This document shows, in pieces, positions 1 through 16,631 of a stretch of 16,874 bases of DNA. Both the position numbers and the translations under genes were made by a program. This DNA comes from a virus (taxonomy: Duplodnaviria > Heunggongvirae > Uroviricota > Caudoviricetes): IMG/VR virus record IMGVR_UViG_2740892443_000003, positions 1 to 16,874 of that record; one strand, 5' to 3'. Within the stretch, counting starts at the first letter, position 1; each line of letters begins with the position of its first letter. Under the pieces are notes generated by a model that saw only the letters and a program-made list of their open reading frames with translations, had not been told where the DNA came from and did not search any database.

Positions 1-714
1 ATGTGGGTCAATAAGTATATTGACGATTGCACTGATGAGGATTTAAACGATCGTGACTTTATTGCATCAGTTGTTGACCGGGCTATTTTTCATTTCGCGA
101 TTAATAGTATATGTAATCCTGGGGATAATAAAGATGCGACTCCCATTGAACGATGTACTTTTGATGTAGAAACTAAGAATGGCCTTCCCTCCACGGTTCA
201 GCTATTTTATGAGGAATCTAAGGATAATGAACCTTTAGCGAATATACATTTTCAAGCAATAGGTTCTGGTTTTTTAACGTTTGTTAATGCCTGCCAGGAA
301 CATGATGACAACAGCTTAAAATTATTTGCTTCGCTGTTAATTTCACTTTCATATTCTAGTGCCTACACAGATTTAGCCGGAGCAGAAAAAGTGAATATTA
401 ATGAATATAATGAGAACTATCTGACAGCTCAGTTTGAAGAATTATCTCAACGTGATATGAAGAAGTACCTGGGAGAGATGAAGCATCTGGCGGACCGGGG
501 GGGGATGAAATTTGATGACTATCTGGATAAAATGTCACTTCTGGTGAATGAAGGAAAGCTCGAACCTGATATTTTAAGCAAAATGCGAGATGCTGCACCG
601 AAATTAATTGACTTTGCTAAGTCGTTTGACCCAAACTCAAAGGAAAAGATTAAAATACTTACAGATACTTCTAATTTAATTTATGATTTATTCGGGGTTA
701 AATCGGCGAAATAA
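1..714 (+). CDS. Hypothetical protein, 237 aa, AT-rich; chromosomal flank upstream of dusA; 5' end may lie outside window
   Basis: ATG at window position 1 to TAA at 712-714. No family recognised. Followed by a hairpin terminator. Position and size fit the gene upstream of dusA in K-12 gene order (yjbM, from memory, unverified). Confidence 0.5.
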   Translation: MWVNKYIDDCTDEDLNDRDFIASVVDRAIFHFAINSICNPGDNKDATPIERCTFDVETKNGLPSTVQLFYEESKDNEPLANIHFQAIGSGFLTFVNACQEHDDNSLKLFASLLISLSYSSAYTDLAGAEKVNINEYNENYLTAQFEELSQRDMKKYLGEMKHLADRGGMKFDDYLDKMSLLVNEGKLEPDILSKMRDAAPKLIDFAKSFDPNSKEKIKILTDTSNLIYDLFGVKSAK

Positions 715-753
715 TATGTGAAGTTCTTCGATGGTATGGAAGGCATTACATAA

Positions 754-786
754 AAGAACCTAATACTTATTGGGTTCTTTTTTCTT
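754..786 (+). terminator. Rho-independent terminator after the flank gene
   Basis: Stem AAGAACC (754-760) pairs with GGTTCTT (773-779) around a 12-nt loop, followed by TTTTCTT. Confidence 0.55.
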
Positions 787-1077
787 CTATCAGTGCCATT
801 AGCAGGAAGAGATATCACCGGAGTTTAATGTGTGATTTTTTATTTATCGTCGAACCTGGATTGTTTATCATTGTCCTTAACAAGGCTAACGGCTAATAAG
901 ATTATTTCCATCACTTCGTGAGAGCTTCATGCCTTGATTTGATCTCAATTTTCTTTTGCAATGAGACAGGCGCTTCCTGTTGTTATGGTATAGTACCCCG
1001 CTATTGAGCCTCCTGAACAGTGATGCTGAATAACATAACCCAATGATATATCGATAAAATAATCTCTACATTTGAAA

Positions 1078-1182
1078 ATGCACGGTAATTCTGAAATGCA
1101 AAAAATCAACCAAACCAGCGCAATGCCTGAAAAAACTGACGTTCACTGGAGTGGTCGGTTTAGCGTTGCACCAATGCTCGAT
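1078..1182 (+). repeat. attL-side copy of the dusA 5' segment (chromosomal version)
   Basis: Direct repeat of 15461-15565; about 20 mismatches over 105 nt by manual codon-by-codon alignment. Confidence 0.8.
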
Positions 1183-1200
1183 AGGATGTACCGTTGTTGA
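1078..1200 (+). pseudogene. dusA: Displaced original 5' end of dusA (35 native codons, 5 island-derived codons, then TGA)
   Basis: Translates MHGNSEMQKINQTSAMPEKTDVHWSGRFSVAPMLD-RMYRC*. The first 35 codons are about 81% identical in DNA to the start of the intact dusA at 15461. Similarity ends right after the shared ATGCTCGA at 1174-1181. Confidence 0.85.
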
Positions 1201-1222
1201 AAAACAAGTAGTTATACACTCT

Positions 1223-1243
1223 GTGGGAGCCTATTGGGAACCC
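1223..1243 (+). promoter_or_regulatory. Two direct NTGGGARCC repeats just inside the left junction; candidate integrase or RDF arm-type sites
   Basis: GTGGGAGCC (1223-1231) and TTGGGAACC (1234-1242), 11 bp apart. The same 8-mer TGGGAACC recurs near the right junction at 15408-15415. Confidence 0.35.
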
Positions 1244-1325
1244 GGCGTTTTCATTTCAAGGTGTAATCCATACGCGGCTTAAGAATGAGATATAATGCGA
1301 CTTTTAGTGTTCCGCTTGAGAGGCC

Positions 1326-1862
1326 ATGATGCTTACCCTGGACGAGATAGGTCAATCAGTACGTAACAATATCCAGTTGATTATTGATCATGTCGGCTTA
1401 CCTCTTGCTGTTGGTCCGCTCAGTGATGATGATTACAAGATTCTGTGTGGTGGCTATGGTGAGCTTGAATGGGACTATGCGTTAAGCACCTATGGCAACT
1501 CCAGAGAAAAGTATGAGTTCTGCATAAAACTTGTTCAGCAAGGTCGGGTTCAGGGAATACCATCAGGAGCAGCAATTTGTGTTTATGGGGTTGAAGAAAA
1601 CATCTTTCGTATCCATATGATCGAAAGGTTTTCTAGAGAAGATGAATCTCACCCATTGAAAGGGCGCATGGTTTTACTCACTCTTATGAGTGCTTTTATA
1701 TTTTGTAAAGCTGTTGAATGTAAAGTTGTCCACATTGTAGAGCCAGTACCAGAACTGGTGCAGTATTACGAGTCTTTTGGTTTCCGCATGGAACAGTGCG
1801 GTTATGTGATGTCTGCAGTCATTGATGAGCTGCAGGATATCTTTCTTAAATTTGCTCAGTAG
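1326..1862 (+). CDS. Putative GNAT-fold N-acetyltransferase-like protein, 178 aa (island cargo)
   Basis: ORF with tandem ATGs at 1326 and 1329 and a GAGAGG Shine-Dalgarno. C-terminal region KGRMVLLTLMSAFIFCKAVECKVVHIVEPVPELVQYYESFGFRM resembles the GNAT acetyl-CoA-binding core. Functional call is tentative. Confidence 0.55.
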   Translation: MMLTLDEIGQSVRNNIQLIIDHVGLPLAVGPLSDDDYKILCGGYGELEWDYALSTYGNSREKYEFCIKLVQQGRVQGIPSGAAICVYGVEENIFRIHMIERFSREDESHPLKGRMVLLTLMSAFIFCKAVECKVVHIVEPVPELVQYYESFGFRMEQCGYVMSAVIDELQDIFLKFAQ

Positions 1863-1967
1863 GTATAGACGAGAAGGGTCTACAAATTGTAGGATACCCG
1901 TCCAGATTACCTTAAAGGTACATCTATGGCAGTCGTTTTGTGCTTAAACTACTAAGAAACGATGTCA

Positions 1968-1988
1968 CCAATCGACATGATCGATTGG
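1968..1988 (+). promoter_or_regulatory. Perfect 8-5-8 palindrome CCAATCGA-catga-TCGATTGG upstream of the small ORF; candidate operator
   Basis: Exact inverted repeat read directly from the sequence, 70 bp upstream of the 2059 start codon. Confidence 0.3.
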
Positions 1989-2058
1989 CATAAGTTAGCT
2001 AAACAAGCTAGCTTTAAAGAGAGGGTTAGAGACGCCTTTACTGTCTCGGGAGTTTTCT

Positions 2059-2232
2059 ATGAAAGATCAAAAAGCAACCAAGCCACAGGTTAAGTTCGAC
2101 ACAATGAAAGCATTCGCAGGTATGGGTGCTGCTGTTGAAGTTCTGATGAAGGCTGCTCCTAATGCGTTCACTCACGCTACTGTCTCTGGTAAAGAGCAGC
2201 AGGGTAAGCTTCGTCGTCGCAAAGCAGCATGA
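2059..2232 (+). CDS. Small basic hypothetical protein, 57 aa (below the ORF-track size cutoff)
   Basis: ATG at 2059 preceded by GGGAG, TGA at 2230-2232, strong terminator 20 bp downstream. Translation MKDQKATKPQVKFDTMKAFAGMGAAVEVLMKAAPNAFTHATVSGKEQQGKLRRRKAA. Confidence 0.45.
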   Translation: MKDQKATKPQVKFDTMKAFAGMGAAVEVLMKAAPNAFTHATVSGKEQQGKLRRRKAA

Positions 2233-2250
2233 TCATAGCTGGTGCTTTTT

Positions 2251-2278
2251 GAAAACCCGCCTTTAGGCGGGTTTTTTC
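2251..2278. terminator. Bidirectional rho-independent terminator shared by the small ORF (+) and the leftward operon (-)
   Basis: AAACCCGCC-ttta-GGCGGGTTT hairpin with an A-tract on one side and a T-tract on the other. Confidence 0.8.
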
Positions 2279-2279
2279 T

Positions 2280-2561
2280 TTAGTGATGTTCTTTGCCCTT
2301 CTGTTTGCCTGTTCTGACCTGTTCCCACTCGATACGTCCTTCTTCTCGTCTTTTGTCTATGTATTCCGCAAGATCCTGAATATTGATGCAACGTTTTGCT
2401 TTTTGTGATGTGCCGATGCGATATGTTGGAACGGGCAACTTACAAGCGTTTGCTTTTGCTTCTGCCGTGGCTGGACTCATGCCAAAGTACTTTTGGCTAA
2501 CTGCTGAGAGTTCAATGTTAGGGGTATTGAATTCAGCCATCAGTAAAAACAAGGTGTTCAT
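2280..2561 (-). CDS. PrtN-family (pyocin-activator / AlpA-like) DNA-binding protein, 93 aa
   Basis: MNTLFLLMAEF...KLPVPTYRIGTSQKAKRCINIQDLAEYID matches the PrtN family pattern as I recall it. Start chosen at the ATG at 2559-2561 with GGAG six nt upstream; the ORF-track start at 2588 is a GTG. Confidence 0.65.
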   Translation of the reverse strand: MNTLFLLMAEFNTPNIELSAVSQKYFGMSPATAEAKANACKLPVPTYRIGTSQKAKRCINIQDLAEYIDKRREEGRIEWEQVRTGKQKGKEHH

Positions 2562-2597
2562 AATTTTCTCCATCAAAACCGGCTGCACCCGGGAAAA

Positions 2598-3170
2598 TCA
2601 TAATTCTGTGCTGGTGGCAGGAATTAATTTCTGCCAGATAGCGGAAACATATTTTGCCTGATGACGAGCATCAGCCAGGGCGTTGTGCCGTTCGCCATCG
2701 AAAGGCATGTCCATTTTGGGGTCGAATCCGATGAAACGCCCAAGCGTAACGATCGTGCGTACATCGTGGTCATTCCAGCACGCCCATGGGCAGATTTGTC
2801 CTGCTCGCTCATAAGCCCCACGTAAAATTACGTTGTCGAAGGTGGCTCCGTTACCCCAGACTTTTAAATATTTCGTATTGTCTGCGTGCCGGTTAATGAA
2901 ATGGTTCAGTTCAGAGAGTGCATCGCTGATCGACAAAGTATCATCAATACAGATTGCAGCTCGTGCTTCAGGGCTTTGTTTCAACCACCACAGGATGGTA
3001 TCGCCGTCAGGTGTGGCCCCTTGCTCCATAGCACTTTCCAGGCTGACAACCGTATAGAATTCTTGTCCGATGTCTCCGGTTTCTGGGGTGAAGAACACCG
3101 CGCCAATGGAAACGATTGGTGCATCCTTATTTTTCCCCATCGTCTCAAGGTCGATCATTAAGTTGTTCAT
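2598..3170 (-). CDS. DnaQ-like DEDDh 3'-5' exonuclease, 190 aa
   Basis: N-terminal MIDLETMG (Exo I D-x-E motif) and C-terminal H...D motif. ATG at 3168-3170 with GGAGGT Shine-Dalgarno, overlapping the upstream stop (TGATG). Confidence 0.8.
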   Translation of the reverse strand: MNNLMIDLETMGKNKDAPIVSIGAVFFTPETGDIGQEFYTVVSLESAMEQGATPDGDTILWWLKQSPEARAAICIDDTLSISDALSELNHFINRHADNTKYLKVWGNGATFDNVILRGAYERAGQICPWACWNDHDVRTIVTLGRFIGFDPKMDMPFDGERHNALADARHQAKYVSAIWQKLIPATSTEL

Positions 3171-3919
3171 CACTTCACCTCCTGCGGCGGTTCCGGTAGC
3201 GGCATCCAGTGAGTTGCTTGCTCAATACCATTACCCGGCTTAATCGTTGCATCTCCGCGCCGAAAGGTGCTTCCGGTATAGCGTGCGGAGCATATTAGCG
3301 GTTCAACCAGAGAGCTATCGAAATTCACCGAAATAAGCACGTTCTGGCCCTTTTCAGGCATTCGATCACTACAGCTTATCCAACTATCCGGAGTTCCTGG
3401 AGAGTTGCCACCGGGAATATTTTCCGGAATATTTTGTTGTGCGTTTTGTGGTTGTTCGGATTTACCCTGAAGCATGGCGGCTCGGCAGGCATCACTGCGA
3501 ACTTCAATCCCCGCCTTATCCAACGCAAGCAACAAACCTCGTTCGCTGTCTCCGCAGTCGTCCAGTGTGTCATTGAGCACCGAAAGCGCTTTTTCGAAAT
3601 CTTCATCGTGAATAGCGAGCGGCACAGCCACCGCTGGCTGCGGTAACTGTGGTGCTGTGTAGAGTGGCGTAACACTGATTTCGTATTCGTTAATATCTTC
3701 ATCGCTGATAGATGCATCAAAGCTTAAAAAGCCAGGTCTACCGAGACCACGGGCCTGTGCGTCCTGGATGATGTACGCCACAGCCTCAGCTTCGAGCGAT
3801 GCCAGTGCGATACGCGCCAGCTCTTTGACAACATCACAGTTTTTATTTCCTTCGCAATCATCCATCAAAAGCCAATCGTCATTGATTATTTCTTTAATCT
3901 TATCCCGTGAAAGTTCCAT
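3170..3919 (-). CDS. Phage protein with C-terminal DUF551-like domain, 249 aa
   Basis: C-terminal WISCSDRMPEKGQNVLIS...HWMPLPEPP resembles DUF551. GGGGGTG Shine-Dalgarno before the ATG at 3917-3919. Confidence 0.65.
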   Translation of the reverse strand: MELSRDKIKEIINDDWLLMDDCEGNKNCDVVKELARIALASLEAEAVAYIIQDAQARGLGRPGFLSFDASISDEDINEYEISVTPLYTAPQLPQPAVAVPLAIHDEDFEKALSVLNDTLDDCGDSERGLLLALDKAGIEVRSDACRAAMLQGKSEQPQNAQQNIPENIPGGNSPGTPDSWISCSDRMPEKGQNVLISVNFDSSLVEPLICSARYTGSTFRRGDATIKPGNGIEQATHWMPLPEPPQEVK

Positions 3920-4119
3920 TATTTCACCCCCTTAGCTTTTCGTTCTGCTTCACTAAAATCCCAATCAACACGATGCGATATTTCAATGGCCGCCCTAACT
4001 GAATGTTCAATCATGATGTCGAGCCTTTGAAGTGTCATAGCCATATTTGGATTTCGAGCCAATATTTCTGCGCGAAGAATTTGCCAGTCATTGCATGTTT
4101 CAAGTAATGAATTAGCCAT
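3919..4119 (-). CDS. Small hypothetical protein, 66 aa
   Basis: Internal ATG (4117-4119) of the 85-aa track ORF, chosen to avoid a 65-nt overlap with the upstream gene. Weak Shine-Dalgarno. Confidence 0.35.
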   Translation of the reverse strand: MANSLLETCNDWQILRAEILARNPNMAMTLQRLDIMIEHSVRAAIEISHRVDWDFSEAERKAKGVK

Positions 4120-4621
4120 TATCTTTACCCCGCGTGCCATATGCTGATAAGCACTCTTCAAATCCAGCCTGATCATCCGTTTGACCTAAACTGAAGCCAT
4201 GCTGAAGACCATGACGAAATGCGCTATCCTGTAATTTGTCTGCAGATTCTAGTTTCAACTCCAGTTCAGCAATCCGCTCCTCATACCGAGCGCCAACGGA
4301 AACGGCTTTATGGAAGGCTTCGCACCATTTGGACGATTGCGCCTGCATCTTCTCCAGCTCATCCAGCAGCGCCAAGACGGTAGCCGGATTGGCTGCGGCG
4401 ATGAATTCAGCATTGGCCTGCTGTTCCATTTGGAAATCTTCATCGAAACCGCTTTCTGGATGCGCTCCTTCAATTCTGCAAATAGGAATATATCCAGCAA
4501 CTTCACGATGAATTAGTGCATCATCACCATCAAATCGGCCATCTCCATATTCGAGCGACCACTCGCCACTCGTTGCTTTTTCTGCCGCCTCACGCAGTGC
4601 CTGATAGTTAATTTTGGTCAT
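4112..4621 (-). CDS. Phage early protein, possibly Ead/Ea22-like, 169 aa
   Basis: Intact ORF in operon register. The motif ANAEFIAAANPATVLALLDELE and a coiled-coil-like C-terminus recall Ea22-like prophage proteins (memory only). Confidence 0.55.
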   Translation of the reverse strand: MTKINYQALREAAEKATSGEWSLEYGDGRFDGDDALIHREVAGYIPICRIEGAHPESGFDEDFQMEQQANAEFIAAANPATVLALLDELEKMQAQSSKWCEAFHKAVSVGARYEERIAELELKLESADKLQDSAFRHGLQHGFSLGQTDDQAGFEECLSAYGTRGKDNG

Positions 4622-4622
4622 A

Positions 4623-4922
4623 TCACATCACCCTGAAGCCGTTGCATTTACGTAAAAAATCGCAGATATAGCCCTTCATTTTTTCGTGCCAATCTCGATC
4701 ATTCCCATTGCACCAACCATCAGGTGGAGTCCAGTTTTCTATCAGAGCAGCCATTTTCTTTGCTTTCGCCGGAGTAGCTGTTGCGGTATCGCAGTAATGA
4801 CGAGTGTCAACCAACGTATCCATACCATCGATATCAAGTACGCAAAACCATGTGTGATTCGGCATTTCAACAGATGGTATTTGTTGCCCACGTCGACGTT
4901 TATCAATAAGACATACAGTCAC
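4623..4922 (-). CDS. Hypothetical protein, up to 99 aa; start uncertain (GTG overlapping the upstream stop)
   Basis: ORF in operon register. Size is close to YfdT of CPS-53 (101 aa) but no sequence recognised. Confidence 0.4.
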   Translation of the reverse strand: MTVCLIDKRRRGQQIPSVEMPNHTWFCVLDIDGMDTLVDTRHYCDTATATPAKAKKMAALIENWTPPDGWCNGNDRDWHEKMKGYICDFLRKCNGFRVM

Positions 4923-5497
4923 TGGTTGCCTCCTTTGCGAAGCTGGTCGGCGATATCTTCGAGAACGCCATCAGAGAATGAGCGGTCAAAATCGCCTTCC
5001 GGCGCATTAGCCATAAAATCAGTAGAGGTAAGAATCATCCTGGCAATATCCGCGGCGTTCTTCGCAGTATCATCAATAAAACCAGCTCCCCAGGCAGCCA
5101 TCATTCTGTTCGCCACAAAGTAAGCGCCCTCCTTGCGTGCTTCAGTCTTCACTTCAGCCAGAAAGGCGTCGGTGGCTGGGGTTTCGCTGTGGTGCAGGGC
5201 ATCGTTGATAATCATTGCAGCAACTCCGGCCTGCCCTGCATCCGTGACCGACACATGCTCAAGAGTTACAGCCATTGCATGTTTAAGCCCCGCATTCTCA
5301 GAAGCCAGCTCCGCGCACTTGTCCTCAATGTTATCAATCGTGATTCCAGCAGAACGACACTCCCGCAACGCCGTTTCTAGTTTTGATTCAAGTTCACCGA
5401 ACTTACGGACAAGATATTCAGCGTTTGTTTCATTCACTTTCAGATCTCGTGGTACACATTTCCCGCGAAGAAACCCTTCCATTTCGAAAACATTCAT
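4919..5497 (-). CDS. Hypothetical phage early protein, 192 aa
   Basis: ATG at 5495-5497 overlaps the upstream stop (ATGA coupling). No family recognised. Confidence 0.55.
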   Translation of the reverse strand: MNVFEMEGFLRGKCVPRDLKVNETNAEYLVRKFGELESKLETALRECRSAGITIDNIEDKCAELASENAGLKHAMAVTLEHVSVTDAGQAGVAAMIINDALHHSETPATDAFLAEVKTEARKEGAYFVANRMMAAWGAGFIDDTAKNAADIARMILTSTDFMANAPEGDFDRSFSDGVLEDIADQLRKGGNQ

Positions 5498-6030
5498 GCG
5501 CATTTGCGTAACTCCGATAACTCGTTAAAACGTTCCATAAACATCCCGTAGGCATGGCCCGGTGCCAGTGGAATCACGTTGAACATCTCTGTTGCCGGGA
5601 TGCCTTCCAGTACAGGCCAGAAAGAGCCATCATCAAGCCCGAGATCGCGGCGTTCGGTTGCCAGCATGATGAGATCGGCATATTTCACAGGCGTGCTCAT
5701 AACCGGGGGTAACCCGTATTTCTCACGGATTACGGCGTCTATTTTTTCTTCCATTCGTTTATAGTCAGGAAGAAGGCGTTTCAGTGGTGCGGGGATGTCC
5801 TGGCAATACGCTTCTGTTGCATCATGCATTAACGCTTCAAAAGCAAATTCCTGCGGTACCAGCTGGCTGCAAAGCACCGCATGTTGGGCGACGCTGTAGA
5901 AGTGTGAAAGATGGCCGGCAAAGCGACATATATTTGAAAGGGAAACCGCGATATCGTTAATATCGATGCTGTCTTTATTTATCCTGTCATAATAAAAATG
6001 CTTCCCGGAAAAAGTTTTAATAAATGACAT
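5494..6030 (-). CDS. yfdR: HD-domain phosphohydrolase, YfdR-like, 178 aa
   Basis: H...HD motifs (CRFAGH, SVAQHAV, EALMHDATEAY). ATG at 6028-6030 with GGAGAA Shine-Dalgarno gives 178 aa, the size of CPS-53 YfdR. Sits downstream of YfdP- and YfdQ-sized genes. Confidence 0.75.
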   Translation of the reverse strand: MSFIKTFSGKHFYYDRINKDSIDINDIAVSLSNICRFAGHLSHFYSVAQHAVLCSQLVPQEFAFEALMHDATEAYCQDIPAPLKRLLPDYKRMEEKIDAVIREKYGLPPVMSTPVKYADLIMLATERRDLGLDDGSFWPVLEGIPATEMFNVIPLAPGHAYGMFMERFNELSELRKCA

Positions 6031-6086
6031 TTTGTTCTCCACGTTATATGCGCTGCACCGCGCTGAATTTTGGTTAAAGAAAACCC

Positions 6087-6146
6087 TCGCCTTCAGGCGA
6101 TTATTGAGTCAATTACGTTTCCATAAATGCCCCCGCAGGGGCATTT
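6087..6146 (-). other. Two GC-rich hairpins in the yfdQ-yfdR spacer; possible attenuator or RNA-stability element
   Basis: TCGCC-ttca-GGCGA (6087-6100), followed on the minus strand by GGGTTTTCTTT; and the perfect AAATGCCCC-cgca-GGGGCATTT (6125-6146). Confidence 0.35.
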
Positions 6147-6158
6147 GCGGTAATGAAA

Positions 6159-6983
6159 TCAGGCGGTGAAAGTCCCAATAAAGGTTTCTACTTTGCTGTC
6201 CTTGAATTTCTCAACAAGCAGATCACGAAATTCGTTAGCCATATCTTCCTGCACCGCTTCCAGCTGAATAATGCGTAGAACCAGTACCGGACGATCGCCA
6301 GTGATAATGCTGAGGCGTAATTTAAACGGACGTTCTTTCAGACCTTCAAACGGAACGCATTTAAACTCAAATGCCACTGGCATAATGTCTTTGGTCTTCG
6401 CTTCGACAGACTCCATCAGGGAGCGTTTGCCGCTGAAGTCATTATCTTCAAAATCAGCAGTCTGGTTTGCTTCAATTGTGATTTTACGGACTGCCGCAGC
6501 CGCTTTGGTTGCCTGAATGGTGTCACCATTAGCATCAAAGCCCACAAGGTAGTCGGCCCAGTCTTCAATCCATTCTGCCAGTGACTTCTGGGAGTTACGC
6601 TCGCCGTTAACAGACAACAGGGCAGAGAACGGTGCTGTCTTTTTCAGTTTGAGAGTGGCGGTGTTATCTGCGTGACCTGGTTCATCAATAGTACCCAGGT
6701 TAAGCACACTGACTGCTCGCATATTATCGGCATCGATAAAGCAGCGGGTGCCTTCATCTGCAAGATCTTTAGAATAACGGGTAAAGTCATCGATGCTGGC
6801 AGTGGAAAGCGCACCACGGAAACGGAAGCGATTTAAATTAAATTTTTCCAGATCATGAATGCGGAAATTCTCAGGCAATGCCACAGCATCGGCACCAATC
6901 TTACTGATAATTTCATTAACACCCTGAGCAGAAATAAGGGCATGGATTTGATTAATTGCGGTTGCGTCTAAGTTCTGAGACAT
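6159..6983 (-). CDS. yfdQ: YfdQ-like (DUF2303-type) prophage protein, 274 aa
   Basis: Exact size of CPS-53 YfdQ and the same position in a yfdP-yfdQ-yfdR order. GTGAGGA Shine-Dalgarno. Sequence identity itself not checked. Confidence 0.7.
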
Positions 6984-7048
6984 AATAAGTCCTCACTATA
7001 TAAAGATATTCAGTGATGAGATAAATAATCGGTTAATTAAGAACGATA

Positions 7049-7411
7049 TTAATGACCTGCTGCGCGGAGTTTTCCGTCAGGTTCACCGGCAAGAGTCAGT
7101 AATTGTCCCTGGTCTTCCTGCAGAATAGTCAGGCGACCACCGCGATTGACATACATCGGCGTTTCGGTGGTGTCTTCTTCGGAAATTTTCCCGCGGTTAG
7201 TCGGGCGAACATATGAGAGTTTGTGTTTGATTTTCACACGGTTCTCATCAAATGGTTCGATTTCCAGGTTGAGTGAGACCTTACCTTTGGTTTTCGTGTT
7301 CATCACACCTGAAGCGACTTCACTGAGAACTGCGCCGATTTTGGTTTCAAATACGCCGCCGTCCAACTCCCCGATAAATGCCTGCACATCAGTACTGCGT
7401 TCGCTAGCCAT
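7049..7411 (-). CDS. yfdP: YfdP-like prophage protein, 120 aa
   Basis: Start placed at the internal ATG (7409-7411), which has a GAGGAG Shine-Dalgarno 7 nt upstream. The 182-aa track ORF extends upstream through a structured noncoding region. Confidence 0.6.
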   Translation of the reverse strand: MASERSTDVQAFIGELDGGVFETKIGAVLSEVASGVMNTKTKGKVSLNLEIEPFDENRVKIKHKLSYVRPTNRGKISEEDTTETPMYVNRGGRLTILQEDQGQLLTLAGEPDGKLRAAGH

Positions 7412-7460
7412 TTTGCTGCTCCTCATCATATCGACCCTGCAAGGTCGGTTGGTTTCTCCA

Positions 7461-7547
7461 CAAAACAGAGAAGAACACCTGCGGTGGCAGCCGCCCGGAT
7501 GGATTGGGTTATGAGCCCGTCGTCCGGTGATGCTCTTCTCTGTTTTG
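7461..7547 (-). repeat. Long inverted repeat in the early-operon leader: 14-bp perfect arms, 59-bp spacer
   Basis: CAAAACAGAGAAGA (7461-7474) is the exact reverse complement of TCTTCTCTGTTTTG (7534-7547). Lies 50-135 bp upstream of the yfdP start. Confidence 0.5.
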
Positions 7548-7594
7548 TAAAAAGAGCGGTACCAGCCGGAAGCAAGTGTACAAACTGGTACCGC
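7548..7594 (-). terminator. Candidate intrinsic terminator or OL-like operator in the leftward leader
   Basis: GCGGTACCAG (7556-7565) and CTGGTACCGC (7585-7594) are exact inverted repeats; on the minus strand they are followed by TCTTTTTA. The arms contain the GGTACC core seen in the cI/cro operators. Confidence 0.4.
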
Positions 7595-8026
7595 CAAAGC
7601 AGTGGCTGTTGTGGTGACCGGTGCTGATCTCCGGCTTGCGGTTATTTCAGACTCTCACTGGCGTTTAATTGCCCCGCCGAACAGCTCTTTTCCGCAATAG
7701 CTGCAATGTCTTTCGCGCATCAGCCTGCGCATTCACCACAACGCTGAGAGCACTTAGCCAGTTACGGCACCACACTTTGTCGCGGTTCCATAAATGCCCT
7801 CATCGTTGCACCCTGGTCTCTTCCCAGGTGTCAAACCGAACCGCCACGCTGGTTAGGCGTCTTATCAGCATCATCATTGACTTGCACATTCCGGCTACCT
7901 GGTTTGTTTGCCCGAGCAAGGAGTGGATTGTCCCCTTTAACGTCCCCAGACCGCTAACGACGCATGTGCCATACGCCGTGTTACAACCAAATTTTGTTTA
8001 ATCTTGCCTGTGACATGTTTCTTTTA

Positions 8027-8059
8027 GATACATTATGTATCTCAAGGGTACATTGTCAA
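8027..8059 (-). promoter_or_regulatory. PL-like leftward promoter with overlapping operator palindrome
   Basis: Minus-strand -35 TTGACA (plus 8054-8059), 16-bp spacer, -10 CATAAT (plus 8032-8037). The perfect palindrome GATACA-tta-TGTATC (8027-8041) overlaps the -10, and GGTACATT lies at the -35. Confidence 0.5.
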
Positions 8060-8061
8060 GT

Positions 8062-8086
8062 ATAAAAAAACCTGCCGAAGCAGGTT
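8062..8086 (-). terminator. Rho-independent terminator of the cI-like gene
   Basis: AACCTGC-cgaa-GCAGGTT hairpin followed on the minus strand by seven T residues, 12 bp after the cI stop. Confidence 0.75.
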
Positions 8087-8097
8087 ATAAATATTGA

Positions 8098-8772
8098 TTA
8101 GGCCTTTATTTTGTATCTTCTTGGTTTTCCTGAGAAAATTACTGTACCAATTATAGAGCAATTACCGTTGATCTTAATGTAAGGTTCAGGCCAGTTTGGG
8201 TTTAATGCTTTGAGGTAACGCTGTGTTCCATCTTCTATCAACCGCTTAAAGGTGGTTTCGCCTGTATCGTGCATCAATGCAATAACGTCGTCACCGTGGC
8301 AGGCAGGGACTTCAGGATCTACAAAAATCATGTCTCCCGGGCGGTACTCATCAATCATTGAATCACCAATCACCCGCAAGATATAAGTCATTTCGCCACA
8401 GGGTACAGGGCAGGGATAAGTTTCTGCTGTGCTCAAATCAACCTCAGAATAGCCAACTTCTTTCCATGCTCCGGCCTGTACCCATGATATGACAGGGACT
8501 AACGTTATTTGTTTGTTAGTGATTGAAACGTCAGGTTTTTTTGTGATGTTCGTTGTCTGGTGTTCTTGATCAAGCCATCCGACAGGCAGGTCGAAACATT
8601 TTTCGATGTGCCGTGCCATGCTGTCACCGATATTTTTAGTTGCACCATCTCCCATAAACCTGCTGGTCTGGGTTGGCTCGCGATCAATCATGGTGGCAAA
8701 GGAAGAATTCCCGCCAACACCATCTCTCAGTTTTCTGGCGTTAGACCGCCGGATGTCATGGACTGTTTTCAT
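8098..8772 (-). CDS. Lambda-cI/LexA-type autocleavable repressor (S24 peptidase C-terminal domain), 224 aa
   Basis: VQAG cleavage-site motif, GDSM serine nucleophile, TFKRL lysine. C-terminus aligns by eye to lambda cI ([22 protein letters not shown] versus TFKRLIEDGTQRYLKALNPNWP). N-terminal HTH region. Confidence 0.9.
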   Translation of the reverse strand: MKTVHDIRRSNARKLRDGVGGNSSFATMIDREPTQTSRFMGDGATKNIGDSMARHIEKCFDLPVGWLDQEHQTTNITKKPDVSITNKQITLVPVISWVQAGAWKEVGYSEVDLSTAETYPCPVPCGEMTYILRVIGDSMIDEYRPGDMIFVDPEVPACHGDDVIALMHDTGETTFKRLIEDGTQRYLKALNPNWPEPYIKINGNCSIIGTVIFSGKPRRYKIKA

Positions 8773-8788
8773 AAAGAAATTAAAACCT

Positions 8789-8807
8789 TTGTACCGATAA
8801 GGTACAA
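8789..8807. promoter_or_regulatory. Operator palindrome TTGTACC-gataa-GGTACAA in the cI/cro intergenic region
   Basis: Perfect 7-5-7 inverted repeat lying over the predicted -35 regions of the divergent promoters. Confidence 0.6.
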
Positions 8808-8812
8808 GTATC

Positions 8813-8840
8813 TTGAAGGTTCATCTCAATCATGTAATAT
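8813..8840 (+). promoter_or_regulatory. PR-like promoter for the cro/baseplate operon
   Basis: -35 TTGAAG (8813-8818), 16-bp spacer, -10 TAATAT (8835-8840). Confidence 0.45.
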
Positions 8841-8859
8841 GTATACCGGAGGTACATAT
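8837..8859. promoter_or_regulatory. Second operator-like palindrome ATATGTA-N9-TACATAT overlapping the PR -10 and transcription start
   Basis: Exact inverted half-sites at 8837-8843 and 8853-8859. Shares the TGTA / GGTACA core with the 8789 and 8027 sites. Confidence 0.45.
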
Positions 8860-8862
8860 TGT

Positions 8863-9231
8863 ATGAAAGCGTATTGGGACTCTTTAACCAAAGAACAGCA
8901 GGGTGAGTTGGCCGGAAAAGTTGGCTCAACACCAGGCTACTTACGGCTGGTTTTCAATGGTTATAAAAAAGCCAGTTTTGTGCTGGCTAAAAAACTTGAG
9001 CAATGCACGTCAGGTGCAATTACGAAATCTGACTTAAGACCGGATATCAACACGCGCCTTGAACAGTCTGCACGGATCATTCAGCGCACGCCGGATGAGG
9101 TTTTACCCGCGCTGGTGCTGGCGGCGACCTGGTTTGATAACGCGGCGCGTGACGCGGACATTATCCGGCGTAATGCCATTACGCATCCCGGCTTTGTGCC
9201 GGTGATCCCTCTGAAGGTGCCAGTGCAATGA
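8863..9231 (+). CDS. Cro/YdaS-like HTH regulator with a C-terminal extension, 122 aa
   Basis: GGAGG Shine-Dalgarno then ATG at 8863. GSTPGYLRLVFNG...SGAITKSDLRPDI fits the YdaS/Cro HTH pattern. The last ~45 codons are GC-rich like the structural genes. The stop overlaps the next start (ATGA at 9228-9231). Confidence 0.6.
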   Translation: MKAYWDSLTKEQQGELAGKVGSTPGYLRLVFNGYKKASFVLAKKLEQCTSGAITKSDLRPDINTRLEQSARIIQRTPDEVLPALVLAATWFDNAARDADIIRRNAITHPGFVPVIPLKVPVQ

Positions 9232-10307
9232 ACGACAATGTCACGCTACGGGTAAATGGCCGGGAGTGGAATGGCTGGACATCGGTGCGCATCGGTGCCG
9301 GTATTGAACGGCTGGCGCGGGATTTCAGTGTGGAGATCACTCGCCAATGGCCGGGAGATGAGGGTATCACCACGCTTCAGCCGCGCATTAAAAACGGTTC
9401 AAAAGTGGAAGTGCTAATTGGTGATGAGCTGGTGATCACCGGCTGGGTGGAGGCGACTCCCGTTCGTTACGATGCCCGTTCGGTCAGCACCGGTATTGCC
9501 GGACGTAGTCTGACGGCTGACCTGATTGACTGTGCAGCCGAACCGACACAGTTTAACGGACGCTCGCTGGTGCAGATTGCGCAGGCGCTTGCTGCACCTT
9601 TCGGCATTGAGGTGGTGAACAGCGGTGCGCCGTCGGGTGTTATTCCTGATGTTCAGCCTGATCACGGTGAAACGGTGATTGAGGTAATCAACAAAATACT
9701 CGGTCAGCAGCAGGCGCTGGCTTACGACGACCCGCACGGCAGGCTGGTGATTGGCGGTATTGGCTCAACGCGGGCACATACCGCGCTGGTACTTGGGGAA
9801 AACATCCTTTCCTGCGATACGGAGAAGAGTATCCGGGAGCGGTTTTCTGTTTACCAGGTGGCGGGGCAGCGTGCCGGAAACGACGATGATTTCGGTGAGG
9901 CCACCACAACTGCGCTGCGGGCCCGCACAGAGGACGCATTTATTGCCCGTTACCGTCCGATGTATATCAGGCAGACAGGGCAGGCCACGGGGGCAGGCTG
10001 TATTGCGCGTGCTGACTTTGAAGCCCGACAACGGGCGGCGCGGACGGATGAAACCACTTATGTGGTGCAGGGCTGGCGACAGGGTAACGGTACGCTGTGG
10101 CAGCCCAACCAGCGGGTGATTGTCTTCGATCCGGTCTGTGGTTTCGACAATACCGAACTGCTTGTTTCGGAAGTCACGTTTACTCAGGACCAGAACGGCA
10201 CCCTGACGGAAATCCGTGTCGGCCCGCCTGATGCTTATCTGCCTGAACCCGAAGATCCCGGCGCGCGGAAAAAGAAAAAAGCCAGAGTACAGGAGGACCC
10301 GTTCTGA
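9228..10307 (+). CDS. Baseplate hub protein (Mu gp44 / P2 gpD-like), 359 aa
   Basis: Size and position immediately upstream of a gpV-like gene in conserved Mu/P2 baseplate order; family membership not confirmed by motif. High GC. Translationally coupled on both sides. Confidence 0.6.
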   Translation: MNDNVTLRVNGREWNGWTSVRIGAGIERLARDFSVEITRQWPGDEGITTLQPRIKNGSKVEVLIGDELVITGWVEATPVRYDARSVSTGIAGRSLTADLIDCAAEPTQFNGRSLVQIAQALAAPFGIEVVNSGAPSGVIPDVQPDHGETVIEVINKILGQQQALAYDDPHGRLVIGGIGSTRAHTALVLGENILSCDTEKSIRERFSVYQVAGQRAGNDDDFGEATTTALRARTEDAFIARYRPMYIRQTGQATGAGCIARADFEARQRAARTDETTYVVQGWRQGNGTLWQPNQRVIVFDPVCGFDNTELLVSEVTFTQDQNGTLTEIRVGPPDAYLPEPEDPGARKKKKARVQEDPF

Positions 10308-10855
10308 TGAGGGCGATTGAAGCCATGCAGCGACAACTCCTCGGCCTGATTGGGCGGGCCGTGGTGAAAAGCATCAGTGCCGCCACGAAATGTCAGACCG
10401 TGGATGTGTCCCTGATTGCCGGTGAACCCAAAGCCGGGGTTGAACATCTTGAACCCTACGGTTTTACCGCAAGGGCAAACAGCGGTGCGGAAGCGGTGGT
10501 GTTGTTTCCGGATGGCGACCGTTCTCATGCGGTGGTTGTTACGGTGTCGGACCGGCGCTACCGCCTGAAAGGGCTGCAGACGGGTGAGGTGGCTGTCTAT
10601 GACGATCAGGGGCAGTCCGTGACGCTGACCCGGGAGGGGATCGTGGTGGACGGTGCAGGTAAAACGATCACGTTTCGCAATTCACCTAAAGCACGTTTTG
10701 AAATGGACCTGGAAGTGACAGGACAGGTGAAAGACCTGTGCGACTCCAGCGGCACTACCATGTCAGCGATGCGGCTTGCCTATAACGGGCATCGTCACAG
10801 AGAGAACGGTCAGGGCAGTAACACCGACAAACCGGATAAAGCGATGGAGGCATGA
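10307..10855 (+). CDS. Baseplate spike / assembly protein V-like (Mu gp45), 182 aa
   Basis: gpV-like features including a C-terminal YNGHRH motif comparable to LHTHKH in P2 gpV. AGGAGG Shine-Dalgarno. TGATG overlap with the upstream stop. Confidence 0.7.
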   Translation: MRAIEAMQRQLLGLIGRAVVKSISAATKCQTVDVSLIAGEPKAGVEHLEPYGFTARANSGAEAVVLFPDGDRSHAVVVTVSDRRYRLKGLQTGEVAVYDDQGQSVTLTREGIVVDGAGKTITFRNSPKARFEMDLEVTGQVKDLCDSSGTTMSAMRLAYNGHRHRENGQGSNTDKPDKAMEA

Positions 10856-11280
10856 TGGAACTGTGGCTGACGGTGAACGGTAAACGCACCTGCGCCAGCG
10901 CACCGCTGGATCCGCTGACCCGCGCCGTGGTGATTTCCCTGTTTACCTGGCGGCGGGCGGAGCCTGATGACAACGCCGACGTCCCGATGGGATGGTGGGG
11001 GGATACCTGGCCTGCGGTACAGAATGACCGTTACGGCTCCCGACTGTGGCTGCTTCAGCGCAGCAAACTGACCAATCAGCTGGTGCAGACAGTAAGGGGG
11101 TATATCCGCGAATGCCTGCAATGGATGATTGATGACGGTGTGGTGTCCCGTATTGATCTGGATATCCGCCGCACCGGGATTAATGAGCTGGGTAACAGTA
11201 TCACCCTCTGGCGTCGTGACGGACCGGTAATGATTTCTTTTGATGATCTGTGGAGTGCGATAACGCATGGCGGACAGTGA
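10852..11280 (+). CDS. GP46/gpW-type baseplate wedge protein (T4 gp25-like), 142 aa
   Basis: Size and position in conserved order. GGAGG Shine-Dalgarno. Overlaps neighbours on both sides. Confidence 0.65.
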   Translation: MMELWLTVNGKRTCASAPLDPLTRAVVISLFTWRRAEPDDNADVPMGWWGDTWPAVQNDRYGSRLWLLQRSKLTNQLVQTVRGYIRECLQWMIDDGVVSRIDLDIRRTGINELGNSITLWRRDGPVMISFDDLWSAITHGGQ

Positions 11281-12325
11281 ATTTCAGCGCCCGACGCTGG
11301 CAGAAAATATCAGTATGCTCCGTAACGATTTATTCGCCAGGCTGGACGTCAGCGACACGCTCCGGCGCATGGATGAAGACGTGCGGGCAAAGGTGTATGC
11401 GGCGGCGCTGCATACGGTTTACGGTTACATCGATTATCTGGCAATGAACATGCTGCCTGATCTGTGCGATGAGTCCTGGCTGGCGCGACATGCTGCGATG
11501 AAACGGTGTCCGCGCAAGGGGGCCACGGCTGCCAGCGGGTATATGCGCTGGGAAGGTGTCAGCGATGGCCTGAAGGTGACCGCCGGGAGTGTTATTCAGC
11601 GCGATGACCTGGTTCAGTACACGGCAACTGCCGATGCAACCAGCACTGGTGGTGTCCTGCGTGTGCCGATCACTTGCTCAACTACAGGCGCGGTCGGTAA
11701 CGCTGACGACGGTACGGCATTAATCCTGGTCACACCGGTGAATGGTCTGCCGTCTTCCGGTGTGGCTGACACCCTGACAGGCGGATTTGATACTGAAGAG
11801 CTGGAAACGTGGCGCGCCCGCGTCATTGAGCGGTATTACTGGACGCCTCAGGGCGGGGCTGACGGGGACTATGTCGTCTGGGCTAAAGAAGTGCCCGGCA
11901 TTACCCGCGCATGGACATACCGACACTGGATGGGAACGGGGACTGTCGGTGTGATGATTGCCAGCAGTGACCTGATTAATCCCATTCCGGAAGAGTCAAC
12001 GGAAACGGCGGCAAGACAACATATCGAGCCACTGGCCCCGGTGGCAGGCTCTGATTTGTATGTATTCAGGCCGGTGGCGCATAAAGTGGATTTTCATATC
12101 CGCGTGACGCCGGACACACCGGAAATACGGGCTGCCATCACCGCCGAGTTGCGTTCGTTCCTGCTGCGTGATGGTTATCCGCAGGGAGAACTGAAGGTGT
12201 CACGTATCAGTGAAGCGATTTCCGGTGCGAACGGGGAATACAGCCATCAGTTGCTTGCCCCGGCGGACAATATCTCCATTGCAAAAAATGAGCTGGCGGT
12301 TCTGGGGACGATTTCATGGACGTGA
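11267..12325 (+). CDS. Baseplate J-like protein (Mu gp47 / P2 gpJ), 352 aa
   Basis: Typical size and position. Overlaps neighbours by 14 and 10 nt. Confidence 0.75.
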
Positions 12326-12900
12326 CAAACGATGATTATATCCGTCTGTTGTCGGCACTGTTGCCGCCCGGTCCGGCGTGGTCAGTCAGCGATCCGGCGA
12401 TTGCCGGTGCGGCACCGTCATTAACCCGCGTTCATCAGCGTGCGGATGCCCTGATGCGGGAGCTGGATCCGCGCACCACCACTGAACTGATAAACCGCTG
12501 GGAGCGTCTGTGCGGTCTGCCGGATGAATGTATTCCCGCAGGGACACAGACCCTTCGCCAGCGTCAGCAACGGCTGGATGCGAAGGTTAATCTGGCGGGC
12601 GGCATCAATGAGGATTTTTATCTTGCACAGCTTGCTGCCCTGGGCAGACCAGACGCCACTATCACGCGATACGATAAAAGCACGTTCACCTGCTCATCGG
12701 CCTGTACTGACGCGGTGAATGCGCCGGAATGGCGGTATTACTGGCAGGTCAACATGCCAGCCGCCACCAACACCACCTGGATGACATGTGGCGATCCCTG
12801 TGATTCCGCACTGCGTATCTGGGGCGACACCGTTGTCGAGTGTGTGCTTAACAAACTCTGCCCGTCGCATACCTACGTAATTTTTAAATATCCGGAGTAA
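12316..12900 (+). CDS. Mu gp48 / P2 gpI-like tail protein (YmfQ-like, DUF2313-type), 194 aa
   Basis: Same length as e14 YmfQ (from memory). Sits between the J-like gene and the tail fibre. Confidence 0.7.
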
Positions 12901-12903
12901 TCC

Positions 12904-13551
12904 ATGCATCGTATAGACACGAAAACCGCGCAGAAGGATAAGTTCGGCGCGGGTAAGAACGGTTTTACCCGTGGTAATCCCCAGACTGGTACGCCTGCCA
13001 CCGATCTGGATGATGACTACTTTGACATGTTGCAGGAGGAGCTTTGCAGCGTTGTGGAGGCATCCGGTGCCAGCCTGGAGAAGGGGCGGTATGACCAGTT
13101 GCTTACCGCACTTCGCGCACTGCTGTTAAGCCGCAATAATCCGTTTGGTGATATCAAATCGGACGGCACGGTACCAACGGCTCTCAAAAACCTTGGTTTA
13201 GGAGAAGCGGCGAAAAGGGATGTGGGCACAGGAGATAATCAGATACCGGATATGGGAGCATTCGCTTCTGGTTCGGGATGGTTCAGGCTACCAGGTGGAT
13301 ATATTGTTCAGTTTGGCACTTTTTCAGGAAACACGACCCGCTTTATCAGTGGACACTTCCCTATACCATTCCCTAATCAGCCGATGGTTTCAGTCAGTGT
13401 TATGTCTGATGCCGTTCAGTCAGACCCGTCGAATCCTGCCCCGCAGGTTTTGTCTGTAAATTTTGAACATATCAGTAATTCAGCGTGGCGTGTGGCAACC
13501 AGTGATATCTCACAGCAATACAGATTCAGTTATATTTCGATAGGACGGTAG
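12904..13551 (+). CDS. Short tail fibre protein, 215 aa (conserved N-terminal domain plus variable C-terminal part)
   Basis: [47 protein letters not shown] is the conserved phage tail-fibre N-terminus. GGAG Shine-Dalgarno. Confidence 0.75.
13181..13206. other. Gin/Pin/Hin-type (Din family) 26-bp crossover-site-like sequence inside the tail-fibre gene
   Basis: CTCTCAAAAACC-TT-GGTTTAGGAGAA is an imperfect palindrome with the AAACC-NN-GGTTT core. It matches hixL (TTCTTGAAAACCAAGGTTTTTGATAA, from memory) at 9 of 12 positions in each half. Confidence 0.5.
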
Positions 13552-13553
13552 AA

Positions 13554-13994
13554 ATGCAGAAATATATTTTCAGTGCCGATAAAAATGCGTTTTTCCCTGT
13601 GGAGCTTAAAATCGCTTATCAGGAATCCGGCGAATGGCCCGATGATGGAATCGAAATTGACGACACTGTTGCCGCCGAATTTATGAAGGAAGCACCAGAA
13701 GGAAAATACAGAGGTGTCATCGACGGAATGCCAGCATGGATTGATATTCCACCGCCAACTCATGAGGAACAAATTGCCGCAGCCGAACTGGAAAAGCAGC
13801 AATTGATTAATCAGGTCAACGAATACATAAACAGTAAGCAATGGCCTGGTAAAGCGGCGATTGGTCGCCTGAAAGGTGAGAAACTGGCGCAATATAATTT
13901 GTGGCTGGATTATCTGGACGCACTGGAGCTGGTCGATACTTCCGGTGCGCCAGATATTGAATGGCCTACGCCTCCGGCAGTTCAGGCCAGATGA
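13554..13994 (+). CDS. Tail fibre assembly chaperone (Tfa, Mu U / lambda Tfa-like), 146 aa
   Basis: MQKYIFSADKNAFFP... with a C-terminal ...PDIEWPTPP motif typical of Tfa proteins. Confidence 0.8.
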   Translation: MQKYIFSADKNAFFPVELKIAYQESGEWPDDGIEIDDTVAAEFMKEAPEGKYRGVIDGMPAWIDIPPPTHEEQIAAAELEKQQLINQVNEYINSKQWPGKAAIGRLKGEKLAQYNLWLDYLDALELVDTSGAPDIEWPTPPAVQAR

Positions 13995-15372: not shown

Positions 15373-15392
15373 TACACGACCTCGTTATTTCG

Positions 15393-15427
15393 GGTTCCCA
15401 TAAAACGTGGGAACCTGTGCGGGAACC
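15393..15427. promoter_or_regulatory. Palindrome GGTTCCCA-N7-TGGGAACC plus a third GGGAACC copy between int and dusA; candidate operator or arm-type site
   Basis: Exact 8-bp inverted arms at 15393-15400 and 15408-15415, with GGGAACC again at 15421-15427. Lies 20-55 bp upstream of the int start and 35-70 bp upstream of dusA. Confidence 0.4.
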
Positions 15428-15460
15428 TAACGCGAGAAAAATAGCCTGAAATGTTCAAAA

Positions 15461-15565
15461 ATGCACGATAATCATGAAACACAAAAAATTAATCAAACCA
15501 GCGTGATGCCTGAAAAAACTGGTGTTTACTGGAATTCTCGGTTTAGCATTGCTCCTATGCTCGAC
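15461..15565 (+). repeat. attR-side copy of the dusA 5' segment (island-supplied replacement)
   Basis: About 81% identical to 1078-1182; continuous with the rest of dusA. Confidence 0.8.
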
Positions 15566-16498: not shown

Positions 16499-16527
16499 CT
16501 TTTCACCAAAAAGTAGTCAAATTCACC

Positions 16528-16557
16528 ACGCCCTGCGCACCGTCGCGGGGCGTTTTG
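16528..16557 (+). terminator. Hairpin terminator after dusA
   Basis: ACGCCCTGCG-caccgt-CGCGGGGCGT followed by TTTGCTGTT. Confidence 0.5.
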
Positions 16558-16580
16558 CTGTTAAATCAATAGATTATTTT

Positions 16581-16596
16581 TGGCATGATTCTTGTA
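16581..16596 (+). promoter_or_regulatory. sigma54-type promoter of pspG
   Basis: TGGCAT-N5-TTGT fits the -24 GG / -12 spacing. pspG is a known sigma54/PspF-dependent gene. Confidence 0.5.
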
Positions 16597-16631
16597 ATGC
16601 CAGCAAGAGATTTCATATTTGGGAGAGCATC

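Follow-up and report, generated by a model that had tools for sequence, protein, structure and literature searches.

The DNA analysed here, a stretch of 16,874 nucleotides (nt) from a tailed phage (IMG/VR record IMGVR_UViG_2740892443_000003, positions 1 to 16,874; "the window"), carries at positions 4623-7411 orthologues of the genes yfdP, yfdQ and yfdR of the CPS-53 element of Escherichia coli K-12, in the same order, followed by two genes that stand in the places of yfdS and yfdT. With very high confidence, the region is the promoter-proximal part of the PL operon of a defective lambdoid prophage at dusA, a mosaic of mEp460-like and SfV-like sequences. The yfdPQR cluster itself is ordinary, being already annotated, common and linked to DnaA in the literature. 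The item of real upside lies in its leader: a structured RNA, unannotated, that shows strong covariation and is present in many unrelated phages.

Identity, conservation and prevalence of the yfdPQR cassette

The segment contains five genes, each preceded by a Shine-Dalgarno sequence:

7049-7411, minus strand: yfdP, 120 amino acids (aa), Pfam PF27127 YfdP family, PHROG 204 (unknown function)
6159-6983, minus strand: yfdQ, 274 aa, DUF2303
5494-6030, minus strand: yfdR, 178 aa, HD-domain protein, putative 5′-deoxynucleotidase, PHROG 318
4919-5503, minus strand: mosaic open reading frame (ORF) in the yfdS position, 194 aa (192 aa if counted from Met3)
4623-4922, minus strand: DUF7739 ORF in the yfdT position, 99 aa, GTG start

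A sequence-only reading of the window had assigned the first three genes to yfdP, yfdQ and yfdR from their sizes and order, and alignment bears this out. In BLASTP comparisons with the proteins of K-12 MG1655, translated from the CPS-53 region of NC_000913.3, YfdP was 99.2 % identical over 120/120 aa, YfdQ 99.3 % over 274/274 aa and YfdR 97.8 % over 178/178 aa. Judged by these alignments, the three genes are orthologues of those of CPS-53, and a coincidence of size is excluded. The ATG at 6030 agrees with the start of yfdR in K-12; the mechanically defined ORF extends to a GTG at 6042. YfdQ matched Pfam DUF2303 with 309.9 bits, against a cut-off of 26.6, and PF27127 is carried by all YfdP homologues. 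The yfdR gene overlaps the 194-aa ORF by 10 nt, which in turn overlaps the 99-aa ORF by 4 nt; CPS-53 (KpLE1) shows the same P-Q-R order, the same spacing and the same 10-nt overlap between yfdR and the next gene.

The order P-Q-R is also found 3′ of an S24 repressor gene in phages SfV (orf32-30), SfIV, mEp460 (gp35-33), cdtI and Stx2c-converting phages, with ca. 97 % nucleotide identity. It likewise occurs in prophages of Klebsiella and Yersinia ruckeri, with aa identities of ca. 58-60 % for YfdQ and 61-64 % for YfdR, and there the genes situated 3′ of yfdR differ. A survey of lambdoid phages from 2025 describes the trio as common in early-left operons, with no known function for YfdP and YfdQ (PMC12315714). 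From these comparisons, P-Q-R is a conserved unit beside the repressor gene, and yfdS and yfdT are exchangeable.

The E. coli strain ETEC1703 contains the stretch with 100 % identity to the window DNA, and its RefSeq annotation names the genes yfdP, YfdQ family and yfdR 5′-deoxynucleotidase. Some part of the five-gene stretch was present in 3370 of the 5426 complete E. coli genomes (62 %), and at least 80 % of it was covered in just 19 of them. Database entries with apparent YfdP-YfdQ fusion proteins form single-member clusters, are probably deletion artefacts and were left unused.

The genes in the yfdS and yfdT positions

The two genes downstream of yfdR had been placed in the yfdS and yfdT positions, which is right for their position and wrong for their orthology. 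The BLASTP match of the 194-aa protein to YfdS is confined to residues 1-41 (93 %). In K-12 YfdS the DUF551 domain spans residues 50-117; Pfam did not find this domain in the 194-aa protein. The first 41 codons are common to YfdS, SfV orf29 and mEp460 gp32, and nucleotide homology to SfV, mEp460 and the Stx2c phages ends in codon 41 of the ORF, at window position 5381; beyond it the gene consists of a different module (PHROG 14548/614). On this alignment pattern, the joint at ca. 5381 is a mosaic recombination joint of the kind typical of Ea22-like genes. The Prokaryotic Genome Annotation Pipeline (PGAP) labels the gene a partial pseudogene in strain ETEC1703.

The 99-aa protein belongs to Pfam DUF7739 (1.5e-21), a family unrelated to YfdT, and BLASTP showed no similarity between the two proteins. 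Sequence comparison thus makes it nearly certain that yfdS and yfdT have been replaced here by two genes that are not their orthologues. The window therefore differs from CPS-53, in that YfdS is alike over 41 aa alone and YfdT is without counterpart; from SfV, a complete phage that retains the yfdS/T-like orf29 and orf28; and from mEp460, which has other genes after yfdR and another immunity region. A DUF551 domain is nonetheless present farther down the operon, in a 249-aa ORF at 3170-3919. A literature search on DUF2303, PF10065 and DUF7739 returned nothing useful.

Evidence on the function of YfdR, YfdQ and YfdP

The HD-domain motifs noticed earlier in the third gene are indeed there, as residues H50, H69-D70, D78 and D119. 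YfdR matched the HD-domain protein 2gz4 (E = 1.2e-13), with H50, H69-D70 and D119 aligned, and PHROG 318 is labelled deoxyribonucleoside 5′-monophosphate (dNMP) phosphatase. The score against the Pfam YfbR-like family was 24.4, under the cut-off of 25.9, and NCBIfam scores were far under the cut-off, indicating that YfdR belongs to a related HD subfamily and is not YfbR itself. HD hydrolases of the YfdR type occur in 330 phage records whose hosts include Bacillus, Caulobacter, Rhizobium, Vibrio and Pseudomonas, large lytic phages among them.

The sequence-only reading had cited a report by Noguchi and Katayama that the CPS-53 yfdQRST cluster inhibits the initiation of chromosomal replication and that YfdR binds DnaA; the paper exists and its content is as cited (Noguchi and Katayama, 2016; PMC4776307). 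The minimal set that suppressed hda-185, on a multicopy plasmid, was yfdQ and yfdR together with either yfdS or yfdT; yfdQR alone gave no suppression and yfdP was dispensable. Purified YfdR bound domain I of DnaA, dependent on Phe46, and competed moderately with DiaA and DnaB, and its affinities as a nucleotidase were low (PMC4776307). The same authors drew a likeness to DnaA-binding factors of other phages and of the host, among them lambda P, another early phage protein that binds the initiator and lowers initiation at oriC. Lambda P, however, binds domain III of DnaA and is itself a helicase loader, whereas YfdR, an HD hydrolase, contacts domain I and has been shown to act in multicopy only. 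Binding of DnaA by YfdR together with dNMP hydrolysis is, on our best reading, the best-documented activity of the cassette.

A 274-aa homologue named "YfdQ Protein" is present as 36 chains in PDB entry 9o7m (phmmer E = 3.5e-44, residues 16-273 aligned); the number of chains indicates that this homologue forms, or belongs to, a large assembly. The example chain of the entry is C, so that A and B may represent a different molecule. We found no paper describing 9o7m, and the fold libraries used (released up to April 2026) do not contain it. AlphaFold models of YfdQ and YfdP had no meaningful structural neighbours; the predicted fold of YfdP is a long helix with a three-stranded sheet. PADLOC and NCBIfam gave no informative matches for the cassette proteins. 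According to the 2025 survey, neither YfdP nor YfdQ is likely to be a recombinase, and for YfdQ the co-occurrence of the trio with complete Rec modules speaks against such a role (PMC12315714).

Repressor, promoter and leader hairpins

The following features surround the cassette:

8098-8772, minus strand: cI repressor gene, 224 aa, LexA-like S24 (Pfam Peptidase_S24, 1.5e-26; PHROG transcriptional repressor)
8069-8086, minus strand: hairpin with T-run, resembling an intrinsic terminator, directly 3′ of cI
8032-8059, minus strand: PL-like sigma-70 promoter, TTGACA-16-CATAAT, 11/12 consensus positions
7549-7595, minus strand: terminator-like leader hairpin with a stem of 13 base pairs (bp), GGCGGUACCAGUU/GGCUGGUACCGCU, then CUUUUU
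7460-7548, minus strand: long and very stable leader hairpin with 25-nt arms, 84 % complementary, just 5′ of the site where ribosomes would bind for yfdP
6087-6100, minus strand: terminator-like hairpin within the 128-nt gap between yfdQ and yfdR

The cI product is 100 % identical to that of phage SfV across 224 aa, and a terminator is annotated in SfV at the site homologous to 8069-8086. The PL-like promoter is overlapped by an imperfect palindrome (8015-8033/8035-8053) and also by a 20-nt repeat (8034-8053), of which a second copy, with 75 % identity, lies at 8838-8857, within the OR operators annotated in SfV. By these consensus matches, the segment 8015-8059 may act as promoter and operator. 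Control of the operon by the repressor, as proposed earlier, is hence plausible: the position of the genes 3′ of a CI-type repressor stands as observed, and the operator function would follow from the 11/12 promoter and the 20-nt repeat.

The cassette had also been said to head the early operon. This holds for the protein-coding genes, of which yfdP lies closest to the PL-like promoter, but a structured, non-coding leader of ca. 620 nt, with an RNA element, precedes it. No N-like antiterminator gene was found, since the minus strand has no ORF longer than 49 aa within 7412-8030, and no homologue of SfV orf33 is present in the window. The 196 nt at 7405-7600 (minus strand) fold with -86 kcal/mol (z = -6.0), and the putative terminator at 7549-7595 and the long hairpin are both kept in SfV; a Klebsiella prophage has the long hairpin too, at 82 %. 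With these hairpins in the leader and no N-like gene, one has to ask how PL transcripts get to yfdP. The yfdPQ genes are listed as a transcription unit in K-12 (PMC9181523), with which the hairpin at 6087-6100 is consistent.

The leader is of the mEp460 type, window positions 7000-7998 being 99.3 % identical to that phage. SfV, with its identical CI and its orf32-30 corresponding to yfdPQR, has only the final 185 nt of the leader in common with the window; between its cI and yfdP genes it carries orf33 (98 aa) together with a diverged form of the RNA element. In CPS-53, homology to the window stops 19 nt before the yfdP ATG; the repressor has been lost in K-12 and a yfdO-derived spacer, bound by SrsR, is found in its place.

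A tRNA-like RNA in the PL leader

The leader contains one further feature:

7610-7740, minus strand: tRNA-like structured RNA, unannotated

It is closed by a 7-bp stem, P1 (7740-7734 with 7616-7610), which encloses two 5-bp hairpins: P2 (7730-7715), with the invariant loop GGCUGA, and P3 (7635-7617), with the loop AGAUCAGCA, which abuts the closing stem. Between P2 and P3 lies a variable middle arm of 6-166 nt, whose sequence is unrelated between copies. The loops of P2 and P3, which scarcely vary, are complementary (GCUGA/UCAGC), and changes in them occur solely via G-U pairs.

Window positions 7608-7752 share 89 % identity with the corresponding leader in a prophage of Yersinia ruckeri, although the flanking proteins are only ca. 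60 % identical, and pieces with at least 90 % identity occur in unrelated phages (HK620, the T1-like phage swi2, an Ackermannviridae phage, SopranoGao, an Erwinia phage and the P1-like JL22). In HK620 the copy lies in the late leader, between qut and tQ, and in JL22 it lies beside tRNA genes; other copies are situated 199 nt 5′ of yfdP, 3′ of S24 repressors, or between a Q-like gene and a holin gene, and their orientation is always that of the operon around them. At loci with tRNA genes, 24 of 27 elements were located at most 500 nt from a tRNA and on the same strand; this corresponds to 24/177 overall, whereas random positions gave 2.9 %. Each of two exact 22-mers taken from the element occurred in at least 120 contigs of IMG/VR. 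Among the 5426 complete E. coli genomes, 854 (ca. 16 %), P1-like plasmids included, have the window-type copy, which is never annotated.

We collected 187 copies, with 164 distinct end pairs, in which both ends are conserved. Covariation was examined in a gap-free alignment of 91 distinct 5′+3′ ends, with the variable middle replaced by an AAAA linker. Paired cells amounted to 98.4 %, compared with 90.6 % in shuffles, and none of the 500 shuffles reached the observed value on any of five measures. Compensatory double changes were found in 13 of the 22 pairs (133 cells), and in slid controls 26-49 % of the cells paired. There were 51 G-U cells versus 12 A-C cells, which indicates that the RNA is made from the minus strand, that of the operon. 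RNAfold predicted the same cloverleaf for the window copy, with an unremarkable energy (z = -0.5).

The element resembles tRNAs and the T4 RNAs rnaC and rnaD in its four-helix cloverleaf, its 7-bp closing stem abutted by a 3′ hairpin and its loop-loop complementarity. It differs from tRNAs in that the middle arm (6-166 nt) lacks the regularity of an anticodon arm and in that there is no consistent CCA end, and it has no sequence similarity to rnaC or rnaD. Rfam 15 gave no match at E ≤ 10 on a 641-nt stretch, nor in six other phages with the element; ARAGORN called no tRNA or tmRNA, and a full-text literature search for the sequence of the element found nothing. In mEp460, the annotation places the plus-strand ORFs gp36 and gp37 across the leader, where we find the RNA on the minus strand.

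These results are most likely explained by a tRNA-like RNA made from operon leaders and possibly processed to a stable species. As a wider proposal, made tentatively, the operon would be headed, ahead of yfdP, by a tRNA-shaped RNA of ca. 130 nt. This RNA would be one of a widespread, undescribed family of phage RNAs, located in PL or late leaders and close to tRNA genes of phages. It could be an excised, stable species or, in phages without an N gene, have a cis effect on transcription past the terminator-like hairpins 5′ of yfdP.

Other interpretations of the conserved block were discarded. Its reading as protein (...KCSQRCGECAG*, or else a frameshifted remnant of a zinc ribbon or HNH domain) disagrees with the non-synonymous variation upstream and with the covariation of the flanking stems. 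A hammerhead (CUGAUG...GAAA) is contradicted by the lack of conservation of GAAA and of any Rfam match. ARAGORN called a "tmRNA" in phage swi2, but this artefactual call covers both the element and a tRNA-Met.

SfV carries a diverged version ca. 250-120 nt 5′ of orf32, with the same closing stem (TGTGGTG...CACCACA) and other hairpin loops, which makes the RNA family broader than scans with exact words show.

Proposed working of the cassette and alternatives

The explanation that we consider best overall, with confidence slightly short of even, is that yfdPQR is an early phage cassette under CI repression. Its working, which we propose with somewhat more reserve, would be as follows. In a resting lysogen the SfV-type CI would keep the PL-like promoter off; upon SOS induction, self-cleavage of CI would allow transcription into the ca. 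620-nt leader and then, if transcripts read through it, into yfdP, yfdQ and yfdR. In the source strain YfdR would be an HD-domain 5′-deoxynucleotidase with intact metal-binding residues and, like its K-12 orthologue, would bind DnaA domain I at Phe46 and compete with DiaA and DnaB. Early in the development of the phage it would, together with YfdQ (predicted to assemble into a large homo-oligomer), reduce initiation at oriC slightly and act on the pool of dNMPs. Since YfdS or YfdT is needed for inhibition and neither is conserved, inhibition by the island would probably be weaker than that in K-12, or would depend on a substitute such as the DUF551 protein encoded at 3170-3919.

Several observations weigh against this explanation. 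The initiation-inhibitor set requires yfdS or yfdT, and the window has yfdQ, yfdR, 41 residues of YfdS and no YfdT. Strains deleted for yfdQRST showed no phenotype, and the effect might, as the authors themselves admit, be an overexpression artefact (PMC4776307). Transcripts from PL may stop short at the terminator-like hairpins in the leader and between yfdQ and yfdR, in a phage lacking an N-like gene, so that expression after derepression is not assured. The prophage is a remnant, and the cassette may therefore never act in a phage cycle. Finally, the occurrence of YfdR homologues in phages with very diverse hosts argues for an enzymatic core role and not for a DnaA-specific one; taken with the conservation of the trio without yfdS and yfdT, it is more easily reconciled with a more general role than with a device directed specifically against DnaA.

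The last point leads to the alternative of a cassette for nucleotide-pool or DNA metabolism, in which YfdR would dephosphorylate dNMPs early, YfdP and YfdQ would be accessory and binding to DnaA would be incidental. The deoxynucleotidase of phage T5 offers an analogy. The conserved HD catalytic residues, the dNMP phosphatase label of PHROG 318, the 330 phage records from diverse hosts with their large lytic phages and the persistence of the trio without yfdS and yfdT all favour it; yet YfdP and YfdQ bear no enzymatic signature, and the direct binding of YfdR to DnaA hinges on a specific residue, Phe46. We regard this alternative as somewhat unlikely.

The sequence-only reading had concluded that the island probably retains a host-replication-interference module. 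The part that stands is the presence of yfdQ and yfdR; with YfdS and YfdT both unconserved in the window and the phenotype known in multicopy only, retention of the module cannot be concluded. A complete functional module equal to K-12 yfdQRST and silenced by the repressor is accordingly a minority view, clearly improbable, even though YfdQ and YfdR are 98-99 % identical to the proteins tested in the published work, two genes occupy the S and T positions and the repressor is intact: yfdQR without yfdS or yfdT fails to suppress hda-185, the 194-aa ORF has 41 YfdS residues and no DUF551, and the 99-aa ORF encodes the unrelated DUF7739. More generally, as only P-Q-R is conserved and the S and T genes that the phenotype requires are exchangeable, the K-12 result on replication inhibition is not automatically transferable to other prophages.

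In lambdoid phages, the variable early-left region typically contains genes for anti-defence and superinfection exclusion. The location of the cassette in this accessory region, among mosaic Ea22-like, DUF551 and DUF7739 genes, is compatible with such a block, in which the YfdQ oligomer would be a decoy or sponge; the YfdQ homologue forms a very large assembly, and according to one report the release of another phage is affected when K-12 YfdQ is overproduced (preprint 10.1101/413146). This idea appears very unlikely, because the cassette matched no PADLOC model, showed no structural similarity to known sponges or inhibitors, and is highly conserved instead of fast-evolving. Slightly less credible still is a silent relic, with genes that persist because the remnant is young and that are functionless in the source strain. 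The fusion of cro at 9048/9049, an integrase without the catalytic-Tyr region, the missing replication, lysis and head genes, and the several neighbouring genes flagged as pseudogenes by PGAP in ETEC1703 would agree with it. Nevertheless, the five ORFs are intact and have ribosome-binding sites, cI is intact, and the cassette is kept in 62 % of the complete E. coli genomes, other remnants such as CPS-53 included.

The prophage remnant and the rest of the early-left operon

The remnant, of ca. 14 kb, lies entirely within the window, and its two attachment-site borders are marked by a fragment and an intact copy of dusA:

ca. 1079-1183: dusA 5′ fragment, left border (coordinates transferred from annotation)
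15461-16498: intact dusA, right border

The cro gene (8863-9231) encodes the same residues as SfV cro over 62 of 66 codons and, at 9048/9049, continues in frame into ca. 60 foreign codons; genes for a Mu-type baseplate and tail fibres follow directly, from 9228. This arrangement indicates that a deletion took out the replication, lysis and head genes, which are absent from the remnant. The integrase ORF (13966-15372, minus strand, 468 aa) joins a tyrosine integrase to an inverted tail-fibre-assembly segment (Caudo_TAP). Its Pfam match stops at model position 152/172, and the sequence past HDLRR is without a catalytic-Tyr motif. Judging from these features, the integrase has probably lost its activity and the island is probably locked where it is.

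Downstream of the five-gene segment, the rest of the early-left operon (2280-4621, minus strand) follows the gene order of mEp460 gp29-gp25, down to the exonuclease and the PrtN-like excisionase:

4112-4621, minus strand: Ead/Ea22-like gene
3919-4176, minus strand: 85-aa ORF
3170-3919, minus strand: DUF551 protein, 249 aa
2598-3173, minus strand: Rv2179c-like 3′-5′ exonuclease
2280-2588, minus strand: PrtN-like excisionase

At 2212-2284 there were sub-threshold Rfam matches (rnk leader, P9 and sroH), all on one GC-rich hairpin flanked by runs of U and A, which is most simply a bidirectional terminator between a 57-aa ORF and the PrtN-like gene.

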